From the sequence record OR352945.1: a stretch of DNA of 64,000 nt. One strand, written 5' to 3'. The translations under genes were made by a program, and so were the position numbers. Every line of letters begins with the position of its first letter. Within the stretch, counting starts at the first letter, position 1. The notes below the pieces were generated by a model, which made no database searches, was not told the DNA's origin, and saw nothing but the letters and a program-made list of their open reading frames with translations. This document shows positions 2,415 through 49,019 of the stretch, in pieces. This DNA is from Escherichia phage AV115.

Positions 2415-2723
2415 TTACATAAGAAGCAAACGTTCTACCGGAGTACCATCAACCGAAATTACTTTATCAAGGCGGAAAGAACGCCACTGACCTAACTCGG
2501 TATCGAATGCTCGAACTGATTCACGAGGTTCAGAACGAACTTCTGTTGATGGGTTACTATTTTCATATTTGACTTCAAGTTCGTCGCGGGAAGCAAACAT
2601 CGTACGAACATCACCGTTAGCCTTTTCAAATACAACACAATGAACGCCTACAGACAGAATAGTTTTAATACGTTCACGAAGAACCATAGTTTCTTGTTCA
2701 GTTAAAATCATATTATTCACCAC
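2415..2723 (-). CDS. hypothetical protein (102 aa)
   Basis: ORF between cd and gene 31. Confidence 0.45.
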   Translation of the reverse strand: MVNNMILTEQETMVLRERIKTILSVGVHCVVFEKANGDVRTMFASRDELEVKYENSNPSTEVRSEPRESVRAFDTELGQWRSFRLDKVISVDGTPVERLLLM

Positions 2724-3294
2724 AAAAGTTTCGAATTTGTTCCCAATTCAGAGAACGAAGATTATTACGAGAGTACTGAATTACTTCAATACCGGCTTTT
2801 TTTAGAATGTCTGCCCAATTTTCAGGAGATCGGTCATATAATTCTGCATATACAACCTTTTTAATACCTGACTGTGTAATAGCTTTAGTGCAATCAGGAC
2901 ATGGAGAAAGCGTCGTATACAACGTAGCACCTTCAATAGAATTACCTTTACGAGCTGCAAACAAAATTGCATTCAATTCCGCATGGATTTCGTTATTAGC
3001 AGACCATGCACTATGAGCGGCCCGATGTTCTTTAGCCAAAACAAAATTATCCACCCGTCCAAATGCTGTAGTGCCTTCTTTATGCCCAGCAACGATGACC
3101 GGGCTTGGTTTATTCTTCAACCAACCATTTTCGGATGCATGTTCGCAACAGTTTGTACCACCTGAAGGAGAGCCATTATAACCTGTAGAAATAATGCGTC
3201 CATCTTTTTCAATGACGGCGCCAACTTTCCATGAACAACATTTTGATTCTTGAGAAATCAGATAAGCAATCTGAAGATATGTGCTAGCTTTCAT
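2713..3294 (-). CDS. cd: dCMP deaminase
   Basis: 193 aa; cytidine/deoxycytidylate deaminase zinc motifs (CEHA...SPCPDC); T4 cd length. Confidence 0.9.
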   Translation of the reverse strand: MKASTYLQIAYLISQESKCCSWKVGAVIEKDGRIISTGYNGSPSGGTNCCEHASENGWLKNKPSPVIVAGHKEGTTAFGRVDNFVLAKEHRAAHSAWSANNEIHAELNAILFAARKGNSIEGATLYTTLSPCPDCTKAITQSGIKKVVYAELYDRSPENWADILKKAGIEVIQYSRNNLRSLNWEQIRNFCGE

Positions 3295-4286
3295 TATTGA
3301 ACCTTATTAATATAAGTTAACAGCTCTTTAGTTTGTTCCCAACTGATGCACGCATCGGTAATGGAAACGCCATAGGACATATTATCAGAAATTTTTTGAT
3401 TTCCTTCATGTAGGAATGATTCTATCATAATTCCTTTGACCAAATCATTAGCTGCTAAATTTTTACCAATACCAATTTGATTGCTATAATGCCCATCAGC
3501 GTTTGCATGGCTACAGTCAACCATTACATAATGATTCAGACCTACTGCCCTTGCTTTGTTAGAAGCTTCTTGAATATCAGAAGAATGATAGTTCGGGCCG
3601 TTGGTCCCGCCACGCAATACGATATGCGTATTCTGATTACCTTCAGCTTCAACAATGCCTACAGTACCATCGACGTCCATACCCATATACCGATGAGGCC
3701 AGGCGGCACTATACATCGCGTCTGTAGCTACTTTAATAGAACCATTGGTTGCGTTCTTGAAGCCTACGCACATCGGTAGACCTGAAGCAATTTCACGATG
3801 TGTCTGACTTTCAGTCGTACGGGCGCCAATAGCAACCCATGAGAAAATACCAGAAAGATACTTAATCGTGAATGGGTCTAATACTTCAGTTGCTAATGGA
3901 AGTCCCATACGTAGAAGTTTACGACACAATGTTCGTGCAACTATAAGACCGTGGTTCATATCAAAACTTCCGTCAAGATATGGATCATTTACAAGACCTT
4001 TCCAACCTACGGTAGTTCGAGGCTTTTCAAAATAAACGCGCATCACTAACAGAACATTAGGAAGACGAGTTTGAAGTTCAGCCAGACGTTTGCCGTATTC
4101 AACAGCAGCAATAGGGTCATGAATTGAACAAGGACCTACAACAATAAGTTTGCGTGGGTCTTCACCGTTCATAATCGAATTAACTTGTTCGCGATGAGAA
4201 GCCACTTGTGATGCGTAAGCTTCCGACAAAGGAATAATCTCAGCCAGTTCTTTTGGAGAAATAAGTTTTCCGACGACAGGTAACAT
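3294..4286 (-). CDS. 3-deoxy-7-phosphoheptulonate (DAHP) synthase, class I AroF/AroG/AroH-like
   Basis: 330 aa with blocks GPCSIHD, MRVYFEKPRTTVGWKGL, AIGARTTESQTHRE, VGFKN, DCSHAN, ITDACISWE that I recognise from E. coli DAHP synthases; ATG at 4284-4286 with TAAGGA RBS. Confidence 0.85.
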   Translation of the reverse strand: MLPVVGKLISPKELAEIIPLSEAYASQVASHREQVNSIMNGEDPRKLIVVGPCSIHDPIAAVEYGKRLAELQTRLPNVLLVMRVYFEKPRTTVGWKGLVNDPYLDGSFDMNHGLIVARTLCRKLLRMGLPLATEVLDPFTIKYLSGIFSWVAIGARTTESQTHREIASGLPMCVGFKNATNGSIKVATDAMYSAAWPHRYMGMDVDGTVGIVEAEGNQNTHIVLRGGTNGPNYHSSDIQEASNKARAVGLNHYVMVDCSHANADGHYSNQIGIGKNLAANDLVKGIMIESFLHEGNQKISDNMSYGVSITDACISWEQTKELLTYINKVQ

Positions 4287-43496: not shown

Positions 43497-44597
43497 TTAC
43501 GCTGTGAAGATTTTATCCCACATCGCAACAACTGCATCTCGATTATACTTCTTCCATACTGCTTCAGCACGTTTAACTCGAGCTTCGTATGTGTCAGTGA
43601 ATTCTAATACAGCTTTTGTGTAAAGCGCAACTACTTCTTTCTTAGGAGTAGAGGAATCAATTTCTACACGCACAGTATCTGGGTCGTATTCAAATGTCGC
43701 ATGAGGATAATCCTTAAAAACTAACTGGATTACAGGGACACCTTTAGAGATGGCTTCAATAGAACTATTCTCTACCGTACCTGTGTCAGGACACGTATTA
43801 ATAAGTGCTTTAGCTGTTTTAAGACGTTCCATGATTTCACTATGTGGAGCATCAATAATAACAGGATACTTAGCCGGTGGTGCCCATTTACTAGGACAGT
43901 ATCCTGCACCATTTTCGCCTAGTGCTTTAATCGCTTCAAGAGCAACATCAGTGCGACGCATTTTAGTGTCATAACGTTGGGCACTAATAATCAAATCAGT
44001 TGCTGGGAGAACTTCTGGCTTTTCGGTCAAACAAATAACCGGGTAGTCATCATGTTCAAATAATGGATTTTCACGCCAGTAATCATAATCAATGCTATCA
44101 GTAAGAGCTGAAGTCATATGGCAATATTTACGTTCAAATTCACGGAATGCTTTAGTAGGAGCATAGCTCTTACCACCGTATTTGTGGGTAAGAATAGTTT
44201 GTTTCCAAATTTCTACAATACCGCGAGATACAGGCTCAAATGGAGTTGCCATAAAATTTCTATGAACACTGGATAAACCGGCATCTTTAATTGCGTTAAC
44301 AGTTAGTTTAGTCGGTTCCATAGTAACAACAAAATCGTATTCATGGATGCCGGCTAGTTCAACAATCTTACGAGCCATAGTATAACTCATACCTAGACTG
44401 AATTTAGTCAGATGACCAACAGGATGATGATTAACTTTCCAGTCACCAAACGTGTCATTATCAAAGCCGATATAATCAATATCAGCACCGATGGACACAA
44501 GATATTTCAACACATTTAAATGTACTGCTTCAAGGCCACCTTGTACACGGTCAGGATTAAATGGGACTGCACGAGATGGGATAAACATAACTTTCAT
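43497..44597 (-). CDS. putative GT-B fold glycosyltransferase (366 aa)
   Basis: N-terminal MKVMFIPSRAVPFNPDRVQGGLEAV and C-terminal GTVENSSIEAISKGVPVIQ resemble GT4-type motifs; no T4 counterpart recalled at this locus. Confidence 0.6.
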   Translation of the reverse strand: MKVMFIPSRAVPFNPDRVQGGLEAVHLNVLKYLVSIGADIDYIGFDNDTFGDWKVNHHPVGHLTKFSLGMSYTMARKIVELAGIHEYDFVVTMEPTKLTVNAIKDAGLSSVHRNFMATPFEPVSRGIVEIWKQTILTHKYGGKSYAPTKAFREFERKYCHMTSALTDSIDYDYWRENPLFEHDDYPVICLTEKPEVLPATDLIISAQRYDTKMRRTDVALEAIKALGENGAGYCPSKWAPPAKYPVIIDAPHSEIMERLKTAKALINTCPDTGTVENSSIEAISKGVPVIQLVFKDYPHATFEYDPDTVRVEIDSSTPKKEVVALYTKAVLEFTDTYEARVKRAEAVWKKYNRDAVVAMWDKIFTA

Positions 44598-44624
44598 AAT
44601 TAAGCCTTATTAAAATTAAAATGA

Positions 44625-44640
44625 AGCTCCCGAAGGAGCT
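44625..44640 (-). terminator. UUCG hairpin between HNH gene and glycosyltransferase gene
   Basis: AGCUCC-UUCG-GGAGCU on minus transcript. Confidence 0.35.
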
Positions 44641-45437
44641 TAGGACATCCAACACATTTTATAACCTTTGCAGGTTCTGTTAGGATTATTTAATGCTTTC
44701 AATATATTAGAAGACCCTATATCTAAATACTCCCTTAATTCATAAAGATAGTTAAAATCAATAGTTTCACCTGTTTTTACACTTGTGATTCTTATAGGCC
44801 TTCTTTCATATTTAGATTTATACAACTCTCTAGTCTTAGCTTTAGTTTCTTCTGACCTAGGAGTGTATGGTTTAAATCCTTTTGTTTTAAATGTTTCCAT
44901 TCTTGATTTAGTTATTTTATCCTGGTGTTCTTTTGTTTTTACAGGTGCTTTTCGCCCATTCTCCCAAGATAACTTGTTGGCCTGTATTATTTTATCTATT
45001 GCTTCTTGCGTATGAGTTTTACCATAAAATGGATTTAATTCGCCTATACGTTGTGAAGCAATATGTGACATTAATTCTCTTGTTGCTTTAGTATGTTTTT
45101 TACCTTTAAATGGATTGCCATTTTTAGCAATCCATTCTTTCATAAATCTAGAGTGCTCTTTAGAGAATTCTTGTTTAAGCCAATCATAATCTCTAGAATT
45201 TCTAGCTCCCATGTAAAAAGCTCTAATAGCCATAAGCATAGAACGGTTCTTATGAATTTTATAAAGCAATAAATGGGCGATAAAATGCTCTCTAGGGGTC
45301 ATTTTAACTAGATTTGATTTAGCATTACTCCCACCCATAGATTTAGGCAAAATATGGTGAGTTTCAGTATAATTAGGAATAGTGCTGCGGTTTTTAGCCG
45401 CAGCGATAAGTTTATCATAAATTTTACGATAATTCAT
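44640..45437 (-). CDS. HNH homing endonuclease (mobA-like position, 265 aa)
   Basis: THHILPKSMGGSNAKSNLVKMTPREHFIAH motif and NPFYG/NPFKG repeats; ATG overlaps gene 39 stop as TAATG. Confidence 0.75.
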   Translation of the reverse strand: MNYRKIYDKLIAAAKNRSTIPNYTETHHILPKSMGGSNAKSNLVKMTPREHFIAHLLLYKIHKNRSMLMAIRAFYMGARNSRDYDWLKQEFSKEHSRFMKEWIAKNGNPFKGKKHTKATRELMSHIASQRIGELNPFYGKTHTQEAIDKIIQANKLSWENGRKAPVKTKEHQDKITKSRMETFKTKGFKPYTPRSEETKAKTRELYKSKYERRPIRITSVKTGETIDFNYLYELREYLDIGSSNILKALNNPNRTCKGYKMCWMS

Positions 45438-47260
45438 TATCCTAGCATCCAATCTTTACGGAGTTCAGGGTCGTTACCCATGAGCATTTCAAATAGTTCT
45501 TTCCAATTTTCAGGAAGTTTAACTACGTCGTACACAGGGTTTTGAATCATTTCTTTATATTCATCCCGCTGAAGTGAGCCCAATCCCTTGATGTATCGAA
45601 TACTATGCTTAGGCAGTGTATCTTTAACTTCTTCATACTCAGCTACAGTATAAAACCATTTTTGAGTTTTGCCAATTTGTGCAATAATTACAGGCGTTTT
45701 AACAAAGCGAATACGTCCTTGTTCAAACAATTCAGGCCAATTACTAAAGAAAGCAAGCAAAGCCGGATAAATACTTCCAAGGCCGTCATGATCGGCATCG
45801 GTCATAATTGCAATATTACGGTAGTTCGTATTCTCTGCCTTTTCACCAAGAATAAGACCGGTGATAGCACAGATATCAAAGAGCTCTTTGTTCTTCATCA
45901 TATCAGCATATGACATACCCCAGCTATTCATCACCTTACCACGTAATGGGAATCCGCCGTGTAGTTCACGGTCACGAACATCAATGAGATAACCAATTGC
46001 AGAATCACCTTCTGTTAAGAACAATGTCGTATCTGCATCTTTACCGCATTGGTTAGCTTTAATATGCTTATGAACCTTAGCTTTAGTTGCCTTTTTAGCT
46101 GCTTTAGTTTCTGCAGCCTTTTCTGCTGCCAATTTACGAGCTAATGCGGCTTCAATTATAGGCATTAAAACTGCTTCAGAATTCAAAATATTTTTTGCCA
46201 ATTTTTTTGTATCTAATTTAATATGCGTCCGAATTTCGCCATAAGGACTTGTTAAACGCTCTTTGGTTTGGGAATCAAAACGAAGGTTCTTCATTCCACG
46301 AACGAACATTAAGAGAGTGAGACATTCCTTGATGCGCGCTTTAGTCACGTCGATTTTATATTTGCGTTTAATAGCCGGAATTAATTCTTCGCAAATGTCG
46401 TCCATCACACATTCAATGTGATGACCACCGTTTTTGGTATGGATGTTATTCACATAAGTTAAATGACGGAAGCCATCTGGTGACCGTCCAATGGCAATAG
46501 AGCATCCGTCTTGTTCTTGAATGATGGTCTCTTCATCAAATTGTTTAGCAAACTTCTTAAAGTTACCTTGAATCTTTTTGCCATTAAATTTAAATTCAAT
46601 ACCAGGATAAACGACCGCCAATGTTTGGAGCCGGTCTATAGTAATATCTTGGTATATTTTTTCAAATTGATTCATTTCAAAATGTGAGAAATCAGGAATA
46701 AACTCGACCTTAGTACCGTTGTTTTTAGACGGCTTAGATTTCCAAGAAATATTATCAGCGTTATTAGAACAATTAACGGTCAATTCATTTTTACCATCTG
46801 AAGTAGTGCCAACAAAAGAGACAGAAAAAATATTTGTTAATGAAGAACCGACACCGTTTTGTCCACCCGTAACACGTTCTTTGTCGTCACCAAAGTTGCC
46901 ACCGGCTTTTGTACGTGTCCACGCCGCAACTGGTCCTGGAATTTCTTCTCCTTCAGGAGTAATAACTGTTTCTTGAGGAATACCTCGACCATTATCTTCA
47001 ACAGTCACTTTATTAGAATTTAAATCAATACTAACGGAAATTTTATTAGCATATTTGAAATTGGTTCGAATAGCTTCGTCTACTGAGTTGTCAATAATTT
47101 CATCAATTAATTTGAGAACACCTGCAACATATTTAACCTTTTTAAATTCACCGAATAGGAAACGTTCTTGTTCTTCATTGGCAACACTTCCAATATACAT
47201 GCCAGGACGCTTCAAACAATGCTCTTTATCAGATAGCATTTCAATTTTATTATCAATCAT
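45437..47260 (-). CDS. 39: DNA topoisomerase II large subunit gp39, unsplit 39+60 form
   Basis: 607 aa from ATG 47258-47260; GyrB-like ATPase and Toprim regions in one ORF. Confidence 0.9.
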   Translation of the reverse strand: MIDNKIEMLSDKEHCLKRPGMYIGSVANEEQERFLFGEFKKVKYVAGVLKLIDEIIDNSVDEAIRTNFKYANKISVSIDLNSNKVTVEDNGRGIPQETVITPEGEEIPGPVAAWTRTKAGGNFGDDKERVTGGQNGVGSSLTNIFSVSFVGTTSDGKNELTVNCSNNADNISWKSKPSKNNGTKVEFIPDFSHFEMNQFEKIYQDITIDRLQTLAVVYPGIEFKFNGKKIQGNFKKFAKQFDEETIIQEQDGCSIAIGRSPDGFRHLTYVNNIHTKNGGHHIECVMDDICEELIPAIKRKYKIDVTKARIKECLTLLMFVRGMKNLRFDSQTKERLTSPYGEIRTHIKLDTKKLAKNILNSEAVLMPIIEAALARKLAAEKAAETKAAKKATKAKVHKHIKANQCGKDADTTLFLTEGDSAIGYLIDVRDRELHGGFPLRGKVMNSWGMSYADMMKNKELFDICAITGLILGEKAENTNYRNIAIMTDADHDGLGSIYPALLAFFSNWPELFEQGRIRFVKTPVIIAQIGKTQKWFYTVAEYEEVKDTLPKHSIRYIKGLGSLQRDEYKEMIQNPVYDVVKLPENWKELFEMLMGNDPELRKDWMLG

Positions 47261-47936
47261 TAGATTTTCTCTCAAATTGCATGACTATATTTTTGTATGA
47301 ACCTTCCGGAAATCCACGTTTAATGCTTTCTTTAGCAAATTTCCCAACCTTTGGTTTATCCAATTCTAACCATAATTTATATAAAGCAGATTCATATTCC
47401 CATACAGGACTTTTACGATTTTTAAGCCCACACTTTATAAGCGCTTCCTTTGTATGTTTCTTATTATAAAATGGATTGTTTTTGCCACTCATTGCTTTAG
47501 AATGTTCCGGGCGCTTAATTCCATACATCGGATTAAGATCGCCTTTCTTGATAACGGATTGTAGTTCAATAGTTTCTTCAGAGTGATTGTGTCCATAAAA
47601 TGGATTTAACTCTTTTGAAACATCCATACCAAAGCACCCATCGACTGTGGCATAAGACATGTTGAAAAATTTTTCAGATTTAACCACATTATGCAATTTC
47701 TGGTAATACAACTCACAAAACGTCGCTTCTTCCCGTGTATCAAATTCGCCAATAATACATGAATCAAATAAATGAGGATTATCTTTTATCTCTTTATCAT
47801 AAATTTGTTTATATTTTTTCGACTTTACCGTACCATGATAGTGATTGTTTGTATGTTTATCAAGATAAGTAGACCCTATATAAAACGGTGGCAACTTATC
47901 GCCTGTGTATATTGTTAAGTATGTTATGTATTTCAT
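47253..47936 (-). CDS. GIY-YIG-like homing endonuclease (seg-like, 227 aa)
   Basis: N-terminal YITYLTIYTGDKLPPFYIGST and repeated NPFYG/NPMYG/NPFYN motifs; overlaps gene 39 start. Confidence 0.65.
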   Translation of the reverse strand: MKYITYLTIYTGDKLPPFYIGSTYLDKHTNNHYHGTVKSKKYKQIYDKEIKDNPHLFDSCIIGEFDTREEATFCELYYQKLHNVVKSEKFFNMSYATVDGCFGMDVSKELNPFYGHNHSEETIELQSVIKKGDLNPMYGIKRPEHSKAMSGKNNPFYNKKHTKEALIKCGLKNRKSPVWEYESALYKLWLELDKPKVGKFAKESIKRGFPEGSYKNIVMQFERKSND

Positions 47937-47970
47937 AAAGGTATTCTATCATCCGAAATCTAAAGCAAAA

Positions 47971-47984
47971 AGGGCCGAAGCCCT
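47971..47984 (-). terminator. UUCG hairpin
   Basis: AGGGC-UUCG-GCCCU then U-rich tract on minus transcript. Confidence 0.45.
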
Positions 47985-48406
47985 TATTTAAATTTAATTT
48001 TCTGAAGTGCATCAATTGCAGCCAAACGCCCTTGTTCACTTTTAACTGTAACGACCACATCGCCTGATACGATCACCGAACCATCAACAAATTCTATAGA
48101 GCCTTTTTTGAAATCGACAGCTGTATCTGGTTCCGGAACTTCTTCAAAGAATTTAAATTCTGCACCATAAAGCAGAATATCACCTTGCATACTAATGATT
48201 GTACGTCCAGGTCCATCGGTTTCAGCGGCAATAATCGAAACGCCGTAACCAATCATCTCTTCCACAATAAAATCTTTGGACAATAAAGTAGTATGCAGAT
48301 TAGTATTAAGACGTTTACCAGTCGTATTAAGAATTCTCAAGAAATTATCTTCTTGTCCTTTGATAATACGATATTTCTTACCAACTTCAAAACCTTTAAA
48401 AGCCAT
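47984..48406 (-). CDS. hypothetical protein (140 aa)
   Basis: ORF followed by hairpin at 47971-47984. Confidence 0.45.
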   Translation of the reverse strand: MAFKGFEVGKKYRIIKGQEDNFLRILNTTGKRLNTNLHTTLLSKDFIVEEMIGYGVSIIAAETDGPGRTIISMQGDILLYGAEFKFFEEVPEPDTAVDFKKGSIEFVDGSVIVSGDVVVTVKSEQGRLAAIDALQKIKFK

Positions 48407-48408
48407 AA

Positions 48409-48588
48409 TTAACCCTTCTTAAGTAAGTCGTAAAAACCACCGTTCACATGTTTAGGAGCAGAAACCCGACGAGTAGACAGACGATGACATTCAGGGCAAA
48501 CATCGTTTTCTCGTTCAGAAATTCTTTTAATTTTTTCATATTCATGACCACAATCTTCAGATTGACATTTATAGTCGTATAACGGCAT
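48409..48588 (-). CDS. FmdB-like zinc-ribbon protein (59 aa)
   Basis: Hand-translated: [18 protein letters not shown]...CPECH; ATG overlaps upstream stop (TAATG); below track size cut-off. Confidence 0.5.
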   Translation of the reverse strand: MPLYDYKCQSEDCGHEYEKIKRISERENDVCPECHRLSTRRVSAPKHVNGGFYDLLKKG

Positions 48589-49019
48589 TATTGTTCCTTA
48601 AAGTGAGCTTTCAACATTTGATACAAAGACCATGCCTGGTCGTTATTTTCGATAGTAATCGTCATCACCGGAAATTCAGACAATTCATCAAGTTCACCAG
48701 AATCTTGCTCTTCGGACGCTTGATATGGATTTCCAACTTCGTCAAAGAATTCTGCTTCATTCGTGGAGAGCCAGATAAAGTTTTCATCAAGGATATCACC
48801 GCCTGTTGCGTATCCAACCGTGCCGGTAGATGTCACAATTTTAGTAGGACGACCAAGATGGTCAACATCTAATACTTTAAATGGTTCCATGCCAAGACGT
48901 CGTGCATAAATCCCATTATCAGTGTGGTCTTTAATAAACTCTTCTTGGACACGTTTATCTTTAAATTGATACCACGAGTTAACGCAGAATTTATTAGCCA
49001 TTAGTAAGTTTCCTTCCAA
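48588..49019 (-). CDS. hypothetical protein (143 aa)
   Basis: ORF only. Confidence 0.45.

Follow-up and report, generated by a model that had tools for sequence, protein, structure and literature searches.

Two Unrelated Free-Standing Homing Endonuclease Cassettes Flank an Intact Topoisomerase Gene 39 in a Mosigvirus: Probable Independent Colonisation by Intronless Homing

Does a topoisomerase gene that lies whole between two homing endonuclease genes preserve the state from which the split genes 39 and 60 of phage T4 arose, or does it record separate events? We examined this question in a window of 64,000 nucleotides (nt) from the Mosigvirus Escherichia phage AV115 (OR352945.1; all coordinates are those of the whole window), where gene 39, encoding the large subunit of topoisomerase II, stands between an upstream GIY-YIG and a downstream HNH endonuclease gene. 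A first, sequence-only reading had taken the locus for a pre-split state, or an alternative outcome, of the endonuclease invasion thought to have fragmented T4 gene 39/60. Our analysis favours another explanation, to which we assign a probability of about 0.85: two unrelated free-standing homing endonuclease cassettes independently colonised the Mosigvirus gene 39 unit by intronless homing, and gene 39 stayed whole. The anatomy of the locus, the classes of the two enzymes, their presence and absence among relatives, the conversion tracts linked to them and a transfer between genera were all observed in the sequences compared.

We compared the 607-amino-acid (aa) product of the window gene with the T4 proteins by BLASTP. 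Residues 1–473 of T4 gp39 aligned with residues 1–475 (76.6% identity) and residues 27–158 of T4 gp60 aligned with residues 474–605 (82.6% identity), which indicates that one open reading frame (ORF) covers what are two genes in T4. When the 607-aa ORF was aligned to the T4 proteins, no counterpart was found for the final 43 aa of gp39, the initial 26 aa of gp60 or the 50-nt gap. HATPase_c and DNA_gyraseB matched above the Pfam thresholds and Toprim and TOPRIM_C matched below them; the Toprim motifs EGDSA (417) and DADHDG (488) were intact. Moreover, phrog_543 matched residues 1–605 (E 6e-284), GyrB/ParE models spanned residues 4–604, and the GHKL ATPase, the transducer, the Toprim domain and the C-terminal region formed one chain. 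The sequence-only reading was correct that the ORF is colinear with the gp39 and gp60 regions, with neither split nor bypass, and the gp60-equivalent C-terminus is present. Unsplit gene 39 was also found in RB69, RB14, Bp7, TG1 and Nispero, and the native RB69-type end of the gene occurred in at least 129 of the 50,697 phage records searched by megablast and blastn, the collection to which all record counts and DNA searches in this study refer. Gene 39 is commonly intact, and in several genera mostly so. As a separate observation, codons about 13–27 of gp39 read ..SDVEPLLRNRMVCILVLSAKE in the RB69 reference (NC_004928, L011) and ..SDVEHIKKRSGMYIGSSAKE in OLB35 and other phages; this difference looks like compensating frameshift errors in the old reference, not biology.

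The upstream gene overlaps the start of gene 39 by 8 nt (47260–47253), and the downstream gene starts on the gene 39 stop codon, the two sharing one base (TAATG), exactly as first read. The 3.6-kb region was 99.7–99.8% identical to that of Escherichia phages AV109, AV114, AV116 and AV118 (Mosigvirus, RB69-like T-even relatives), whose deposits carry the same three genes as annotated, and both flanking ORFs gave strong PHROG homing-endonuclease matches (E 2e-44 and 1e-55, the latter being that of the HNH ORF to phrog_655). These results indicate that the three-gene layout is not a chance ORF pattern. A 612-aa reading of gene 39 from a TTG codon was rejected because the homologues begin with MIDNKIEML, and plus-strand ORFs within gene 39 (up to 102 aa) were treated as chance reading frames.

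Among the Mosigviruses compared, both endonuclease genes were present in the window and AV109, the GIY-YIG gene alone in HX01, the HNH gene alone in phi25-307, and neither in OLB35 and RB69. Outside the cassettes, the HX01, phi25-307, OLB35 and RB69 genomes were 97–100% identical to the window. The occurrence of one, the other or neither element in such close relatives indicates that both are optional cassettes; with their linked tracts, described below, they behave as mobile endonuclease genes, as had been supposed. The HNH gene was found in 27 full-length copies, all at least 95% identical, in Mosigvirus and Tequatrovirus, and an HNH-less scar in 7 records, while the GIY-YIG gene occurred at 95% identity or more in about 9 records. 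A cooperating pair, or a composite "gene 39 transposon", was rejected, since the genes occur independently and both were present in only 4 of about 290 matching records.

In five genera, homologous endonuclease genes run into the start of gene 39; the Seg-like family was found upstream of gene 39 also in Dhakavirus Bp7, Tegunavirus TG1, Jiaodavirus Nispero and Bragavirus PM2. In Proteus phage PM2 (L014 1–3258), a Seg-like gene overlapping the gene 39 start was accompanied by a MobA-type split, comprising a 514-aa N-terminal part, MobA (271 aa) and a remainder resembling gene 60. A single gene 39 locus can therefore hold both the Seg-like gene upstream and the MobA split, a combination that differs from that of the window. 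In the Tequatrovirus Escherichia phage Lutter (Table 1), the gene of a Seg-like paralogue (50% identity), whose C-terminal domain is different, extends 23 nt into gene 47 across its start, which indicates that the upstream, start-overlapping layout recurs at another recombination gene. The unannotated 4153-bp record KM389396.1 (Escherichia phage CEV1) contained the Seg-like endonuclease gene at 98.5% identity; the locus has thus been sequenced separately in another Mosigvirus.

The DNA of 47260–46150, which covers gene 39 codons 1–370, was 65–77% identical to that of Mosigviruses lacking the GIY-YIG gene and 98–100% identical to that of HX01. At 98% identity or more this allele was found only in carriers of the GIY-YIG gene, and the next best DNA matches were Dhakaviruses at 77–79% (best, Bp7 at 78.8%). 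The protein identity over these codons was 71% within the genus, 86% with Dhakavirus Bp7 and 82% with Tegunavirus TG1. The left breakpoint lies exactly at the ATG of the GIY-YIG gene and the right one is sharp at about 46156–46148, the start of an Ala/Lys-rich linker; codons 371–535 were 98% identical in DNA and 100% in protein to all Mosigviruses compared. Judged from these alignments, gene 39 is a three-part mosaic of imported codons 1–370, native codons 371–535 and about 15 last codons linked to the HNH gene, and the breakpoints of the mosaic coincide with the cassettes. We conclude that a 1.79-kb block, comprising the GIY-YIG gene and 370 codons of gene 39 (47936 to about 46150), was probably imported from an unsampled donor resembling Dhakavirus or Tegunavirus.

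The divergent 5' allele might instead be an old balanced polymorphism of Mosigvirus, related to topoisomerase properties or escape from host defence, on which the GIY-YIG gene hitch-hikes. The tract does form a whole functional module (ATPase plus transducer) ending at a linker, and the closest donor known stands at 79%. However, the allele is nearer to the endonuclease-carrying genera (86 and 82%) than to its own genus (71%), never occurred without the endonuclease gene in the phage collection, and begins exactly at the endonuclease ATG. We regard a balanced polymorphism as distinctly unlikely.

At the other end of the gene, native Mosigvirus gene 39 (RB69, HX01) ends ..RKEWMS-stop as TGGATGTCCTAA, followed by hairpin GCTCCTTCGGGAGC; the gene end of these two phages reads ..GAATGGATGTCCTAA, after which comes the same hairpin as at 44624–44641 of the window. 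In the window, an 800-bp insert lies between direct repeats TTGGATG (45452–45446 and 44652–44646), and gp39 ends ..RKDWMLG-stop by means of cassette-borne codons. The last 45 or so nt of gene 39 differ from the native RB69/HX01 end by about 10 substitutions, in addition to the new last codons L-G-stop, and this variant end was identical in the HNH carriers phi25-307 and fPS-90. The HNH ORF itself ends with the displaced W-M-S-stop, after which the native hairpin follows. OLB35-type genomes contained the cassette-type end (DWMLG-stop) with a 16-nt remnant, TAATTGATAGATGTCCTAA; this is presumably the scar left when the HNH gene was deleted, and the allele that remains would be resistant.

Yersinia phage fPS-90 (Tequatrovirus; L007, about 2430–3800) carried a Mosigvirus block of about 1.3 kb that includes the HNH gene. 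Its sequence was RB14-like (95–100%) until about window position 45880 and then 98–100% identical to the window. The block consists of the last 400 or so bp of gene 39, the HNH gene, the Mosigvirus hairpin and about the first 50 nt of RB69ORF003c, and at microhomology AATNCTGACC it meets CTGACCTTCGTAAAGAATGGATGAGCCAGTAG, a duplicated remnant of the gene 39 3' end of fPS-90 itself. Such a structure would result if a broken T-even gene 39 end had been repaired on a Mosigvirus template, through homology at one junction and a 10-nt microhomology at the other, and it suggests that the HNH target probably lies within the last 50 or so bp of naive gene 39. Petrov et al. (PMC2993671) listed RB69 as having no homing endonuclease genes and did not see convincing evidence that such elements had moved from one phage cluster to another. 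The gene 39 locus is a clear counter-example, although both phage types infect enterobacteria.

To what classes do the two enzymes belong? The upstream 227-aa protein has an N-terminal GIY-YIG domain (about residues 1–110), three NUMOD3 motifs and a C-terminal helical domain, with the GIY-YIG motifs near the N-terminus as I4-T5-Y6 and Y19-I20-G21, in keeping with the spacing of about 10–12 residues expected of this class. In an alignment of 41 homologues (34–76% identity to the window protein), Y19-I20-G21, Y33, G35, S39, E49, A71 and E75 were invariant and Y6, R68 and N92 were conserved in at least 90%. The residues conserved in this domain of I-TevI include the catalytic Glu E75, the structural Asn N90 and the Arg R27 after the YIG. 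Profile alignment to T4 SegE paired E75 and N92 of the window protein with the E..E and YNM residues. Furthermore, the N-terminal-domain profile ranked T4 SegE, SegG, SegB, SegC, SegA and SegD above all Mob proteins, and aligned the YIG, the Seg-type GY.GS motif, the Glu and the Asn with the T4 Segs. The AlphaFold model had a predicted local distance difference test score (pLDDT) above 93 over residues 1–100; its elements follow the order strand-strand-helix-helix-strand-helix, and fold comparison identified the GIY-YIG alpha/beta fold. NCBIfam TIGR01453 (I-TevI-type) matched residues 17–176 (E 3e-5).

At default Pfam thresholds NUMOD3 alone was reported for both endonucleases, and a relaxed search added sub-threshold GIY-YIG and HNH matches. 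A precomputed GIY-YIG match was present in none of 51 homologues of the 227-aa protein. A PDB search with the single sequence found nothing and a PDB profile search found only the I-TevI DNA-binding domain, via the NUMOD3 region; fold comparison was needed to place the catalytic domain. Among 5.8 billion proteins, the closest endonuclease that was not near-identical had 77% identity, and nothing lay between 98% and 77%. Motif alignment, predicted fold and profile agree that the upstream ORF is a Seg-like GIY-YIG homing endonuclease, not an HNH enzyme, and the GIY-YIG/NUMOD3 class first given to this start-overlapping gene was right. RefSeq names the homologues in HX01, Bp7, TG1, PM2 and Lutter "HNH endonuclease", and the submitters of TG1, Nispero and others named theirs GIY-YIG; the present analysis corrects this recurrent RefSeq mislabel (Table 1).

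With regard to the downstream gene, the 265-aa protein combines an HNH domain at its N-terminus with two NUMOD3 motifs and an I-TevI-like DNA-binding region in its C-terminal half. It starts with MNYRKIYDKL, resembling T4 MobB, MobC, MobD and MobE, and its T4 matches were MobB (E 5e-26), MobE (E 9e-25; 52.6% over 76 aa), MobD (E 6e-23) and MobC (E 3e-13). H27, H28, N42 and H51 were invariant in the alignment with these four proteins and the mobA remnant, and a weak match to the McrA HNH domain (6ghc) was obtained; PF14279 (17.6 bits, threshold 27.5) and PF13395 (15.5–16.7 bits, threshold 22) matched below threshold. The intact MobA of PM2 aligned with residues 1–104 (48.6%), about as similar as MobB and MobE, and the C-terminal half showed no similarity to the C-terminus of PM2 MobA. 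These alignments indicate that the downstream ORF is a Mob-family HNH enzyme, a MobA paralogue with a different DNA-binding module and presumably, for that reason, a different target. The catalytic residues expected of the flanking ORFs are conserved in both (E75, beside the structural N92, in the GIY-YIG protein; H27, H28, N42 and H51 in the HNH protein). Regarding the comparison with MobA and the Segs proposed in the sequence-only reading, the GIY-YIG protein did match the T4 Segs by profile, whereas the HNH protein proved Mob-like but a paralogue, not an orthologue, of MobA.

Is the locus then ancestral to the split, or another direct product of the invasion by which T4 gene 39/60 became fragmented? 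The window HNH gene is, like T4 mobA, a member of the Mob HNH family, and over a 21-aa stretch around the HNH motif its product shows 71% identity to the T4 mobA remnant; each of the two elements is found with gene 39, and PM2 has the same upstream Seg-like gene alongside a MobA split. However, the T4 split element consists of MobA and a bypass cassette inserted in Toprim at about aa 466–491; the MobA element is always found in Toprim, and brings C-terminal and N-terminal tails together with the bypass cassette (bioRxiv 10.1101/2022.08.31.505936). In the window the Toprim domain is uninterrupted, with DADHDG at 488, and the HNH gene is positioned at the terminal codons of gene 39, not in Toprim. 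Its resemblance to the intact MobA of PM2 is limited to the first 105 or so aa and does not exceed that to MobB or MobE, and the intact gene predominates in several genera. A "pre-split T4" state is unsupported, because intact gene 39 is common and the T4 split came from a different element at a different site; we consider this explanation very unlikely, and it is largely refuted. The other half of the original proposal is fair as far as it describes endonucleases colonising the same gene with a different outcome; no lineage relation to the T4 event was shown. The locus leaves the understanding of the T4 39/60 split and of translational bypassing unchanged.

How the cassettes would be expressed was examined at both ends of the unit. 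Terminator-like hairpins at 44624–44641 and 47970–47985 bracket the three genes. The latter was unchanged in sequence in relatives without endonuclease genes and marks the 5' limit of the gene 39 transcription unit. The MotA/-10 site is native Mosigvirus sequence that ends 6 nt before the GIY-YIG ATG; its T4/RB14 equivalent is TTAGCTTTA, 12 nt, TATAAT. From this motif, 47943–47969 is predicted to function as a middle promoter, whose transcript would start at or next to the GIY-YIG ATG. No Shine-Dalgarno sequence precedes this ATG. Phages without the GIY-YIG gene have a strong GAGGAG site for gene 39 at the position where the window has a weaker GAGAG, inside the end of the GIY-YIG gene. With regard to the HNH gene, an AGGA only 2 nt before the ATG and the overlap with the gene 39 stop suggest coupled, low-level translation. 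A hairpin over the Shine-Dalgarno sequence and AUG of this gene was not significant (z = -1.67; 13 of 200 shuffles folded as well), and the RNA folding of the other two start regions was like that of random sequence. No T4 late promoter (TATAAATA) was found in 44400–48200, and sigma-70-like sites were no commoner than in shuffled sequence. No Rfam family matched in 44000–48600, which indicates that there is no intron. The signals are consistent with one operon, from middle promoter to terminator, in which both endonucleases would be weakly translated. Promoter-less, weakly translated seg/mob cassettes with co-conversion tracts are a known pattern (PMC2988022), and by analogy this expression picture fits it.

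In the favoured explanation, the independent colonisation by two cassettes, a promoter-less GIY-YIG gene would have been placed between the middle promoter and the start codon of gene 39, entering as the 1.79-kb block and replacing codons 1–370 with a Dhakavirus/Tegunavirus-like allele. The HNH cassette would have been inserted inside the last codons of gene 39, supplying the replacement end ..DWMLG-stop; its gene would then start on the new stop (TAATG) and be closed by the displaced WMS-stop and the native terminator. During mixed infection, each enzyme would cut or nick a gene 39 allele without its cassette, and recombinational repair would copy the endonuclease gene and adjacent gene 39 sequence from the carrier genome into the recipient. 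The substituted gene 39 sequence beside each cassette would protect the carrier from the enzyme that it encodes. The scheme thus predicts that both enzymes are active, where their target sites lie and that the carrier alleles are immune.

Several points weigh against this explanation. We infer cutting by either protein, and the position of the cut, from sequence comparison, and an HX01-like phage could simply have recombined with a phi25-like one to give the double-cassette state, with no homing in this lineage. No equivalent of I-TevI Arg27 was found in the GIY-YIG domain in the 41-homologue alignment; the family lacks an Arg at that position and has the Seg-type motif Y33-x-G35-S/T instead (T4 SegA–E have GYMGSG). 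The matches of the GIY-YIG protein to PF01541 (13.5 bits, threshold 22.6) and PF19835 (SegE_GIY-YIG; 14.8 bits, threshold 25), and that of the HNH protein to PF01844 (17.4 bits, threshold 21.4), are below the Pfam thresholds. As donor of the imported block, nothing between 98% and 79% identity was found in the phage collection by megablast and blastn. Finally, the left junction falls at the ATG with no tract there, which is more asymmetric than simple double-strand-break repair.

Could both ORFs be inactive or domesticated relics, with a DNA-binding or regulatory role or in decay, and the mosaic the product of ordinary recombination between co-infecting phages? Many T4 endonuclease genes are defective, such as mobA and I-TevIII. 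The sub-threshold catalytic domains would agree with this, as would the weak translation signals (a GIY-YIG ATG without Shine-Dalgarno sequence and an AGGA only 2 nt before the HNH ATG) and the deletion scars, which show that the HNH gene can be lost. But both ORFs are full length with catalytic residues conserved across the families, the HNH copies at 95% identity or more in two genera with donor flanks point to recent spread rather than decay, and the recombination breakpoints exactly coincide with the cassettes. We judge this account unlikely, and continue to favour independent colonisation by homing.

By analogy, the locus would work like T4 SegF/SegG, with co-conversion and marker exclusion, and like MobE/MobA. 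SegF and SegG are free-standing GIY-YIG endonucleases that show intronless homing and localized marker exclusion (Belle 2002, Liu 2003, reviewed in PMC2988022). Like their genes, the window GIY-YIG gene is promoter-less, overlaps an adjacent conserved DNA-metabolism gene (T4 segF overlaps gene 56 by 11 nt) and is patchy among close relatives, and a conversion tract of the adjacent gene moves with it; its product shares the YIG...GY.GS...E...N pattern and the NUMOD3 repeats with the T4 Segs. In contrast to segF, which is downstream of gene 56, the window gene is upstream of its presumed target, between promoter and start. Its N-terminal domain is weakly similar in pairwise comparison to one T4 Seg (SegE, E 0.002), so that the family relation needs profile or fold comparison. 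Moreover, the linked tract differs from that of SegF/SegG in that it is 1.1 kb long and about 29% divergent in DNA, and swaps a whole enzyme module.

The window HNH protein shares with the T4 Mobs the N-terminus MNY..IY, the pattern HHI.P...GG....NLV....EH and 45–53% identity over the HNH domain. Its gene resembles mobE as a free-standing promoter-less gene joined to the preceding stop (mobE abuts nrdA, with common boundary base 140416), and like the T4 mob genes it spreads with flanking DNA. It differs from these in lying within the last codons of gene 39, bringing replacement codons and borrowing host codons and a terminator. The likeness to the MobA/gene 60 cassette (Bonocora 2011; bioRxiv 10.1101/2022.08.31.505936) includes the same host gene, an HNH Mob-family enzyme and coding sequence that stands in for that of the host gene, keeps the gene functional and probably prevents a second cleavage. 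However, the window has no split, no tails and no 50-nt coding gap, its insertion is at the gene end and not at Toprim aa 466–491, and the C-terminal half of the HNH protein (NUMOD3 and I-TevI-like DNA-binding region) is unrelated to that of MobA, so the DNA-binding domains are unlike.

The coordinates of the locus are summarized in Table 1. In the gene 39 part of the window all genes are on the minus strand. The gene order is as in T4 (rIIA, rIIA.1, RB69ORF003c homologue, gene 39), and 39.2-like, goF-like, cef and motB-like genes lie upstream of gene 39. The 366-aa RB69ORF003c homologue, between rIIA.1 and the HNH gene, matched phrog_8302 (unknown function) and had no Pfam or NCBIfam match; RefSeq calls the HX01 copy "DNA alpha-glucosyltransferase". 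A patch at about 44100–44300 of this gene was about 80% identical to HX01, phi25-307 and OLB35, and the remainder 94–100%. The 140-aa gene upstream of the middle promoter, whose product has a weak C-terminal match to the goF PHROG, contained a strongly divergent patch with a 3-nt indel at 48195–48242. This patch separates the window and the AV109 clade from HX01, phi25-307 and OLB35, and is a separate small mosaic segment linked to neither endonuclease gene. Further upstream lie two neighbouring, paralogous ORFs (139 and 165 aa) with the C-terminal motif GFISDQWVEDG.KLYNIVF in common, and their homologues are annotated as MotB-like transcriptional regulators in related genomes, which indicates a tandem duplication.

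Table 1. Coordinates of features at the gene 39 locus of the window, and of upstream-family endonuclease genes named "HNH endonuclease" in RefSeq.
Feature	Coordinates	Strand	Remark
Seg-like GIY-YIG gene, 227 aa	ATG 47936 to TGA 47255-47253	minus	from sequence; absent in phi25-307, OLB35, RB69
Gene 39, topoisomerase II large subunit, 607 aa	ATG 47260 to TAA 45439-45437	minus	
Mob-like HNH gene, 265 aa	ATG 45437-45435 to TAA 44642-44640	minus	
Terminator-like hairpin AAGGGCTTCGGCCCTT, then T-run	47970..47985	minus	directly after stop of upstream 140-aa gene
MotA box TTTGCTTTA (47969-47961), 12-nt spacer, -10 TAGAAT (47948-47943)	47943..47969	minus	T4 middle-promoter-like
Putatively imported 5' part of gene 39, codons 1-370	46150..47260	minus	ATPase and transducer modules; linked to GIY-YIG gene
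Variant gene 39 3' end encoding ..MLMGNDPELRKDWMLG-stop	45440..45485	minus	linked to HNH cassette
TGGATGTCCTAA, original Mosigvirus gene 39 last codons W-M-S-stop	44640..44651	minus	now HNH ORF end
Terminator-like hairpin AAGCTCCTTCGGGAGCTT, then T-rich tail	44624..44641	minus	native gene 39 terminator, now 3' of HNH gene
RB69ORF003c homologue, 366 aa	43497-44597	minus	
140-aa gene	47984-48406	minus	
Paralogous ORFs, 139 and 165 aa	49870-50796	minus	
Upstream-family gene, HX01	L002 4454-5137		
Upstream-family gene, Bp7	L006 4308-4988		
Upstream-family gene, TG1	L013 2546-3229		
Upstream-family gene, PM2	L014 2578-3258		
Upstream-family gene, Lutter	L016 2264-2887		

Both genes are uncharacterised members of known intronless-homing families, and the locus is an ordinary case of phage mobile DNA. 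Its more remarkable points are the exchange of an entire enzyme module, an insertion that replaces the gene end, alleles that carry scars and the trace of a transfer between genera. The window and PM2 together indicate that gene 39 is an endonuclease target at three distinct sites. We consider it moderately probable that, jointly, gene 39 is a three-site hot spot (5' boundary, Toprim and 3' codons), the GIY-YIG element a mover of modules and the HNH element one that enters by end replacement. If so, the GIY-YIG element would move a complete ATPase-transducer module between genera and give functional chimeric topoisomerases, and end replacement would be a third harmless entry into coding sequence, beside introns/inteins and the split tails of MobA type. 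The fPS-90 junction would document how DNA passed in nature from an RB69-type phage into one of T-even type. The locus adds two uncharacterised endonucleases, and the search for their natural targets can be confined to either end of an essential gene that is well studied. Furthermore, the alleles form an unusually clean set (naive, singly invaded, doubly invaded, scarred and transferred across genera), which illustrates the cycle of homing-endonuclease gain, immunity and loss and the way in which these genes drive domain-level mosaicism in phage core genes.

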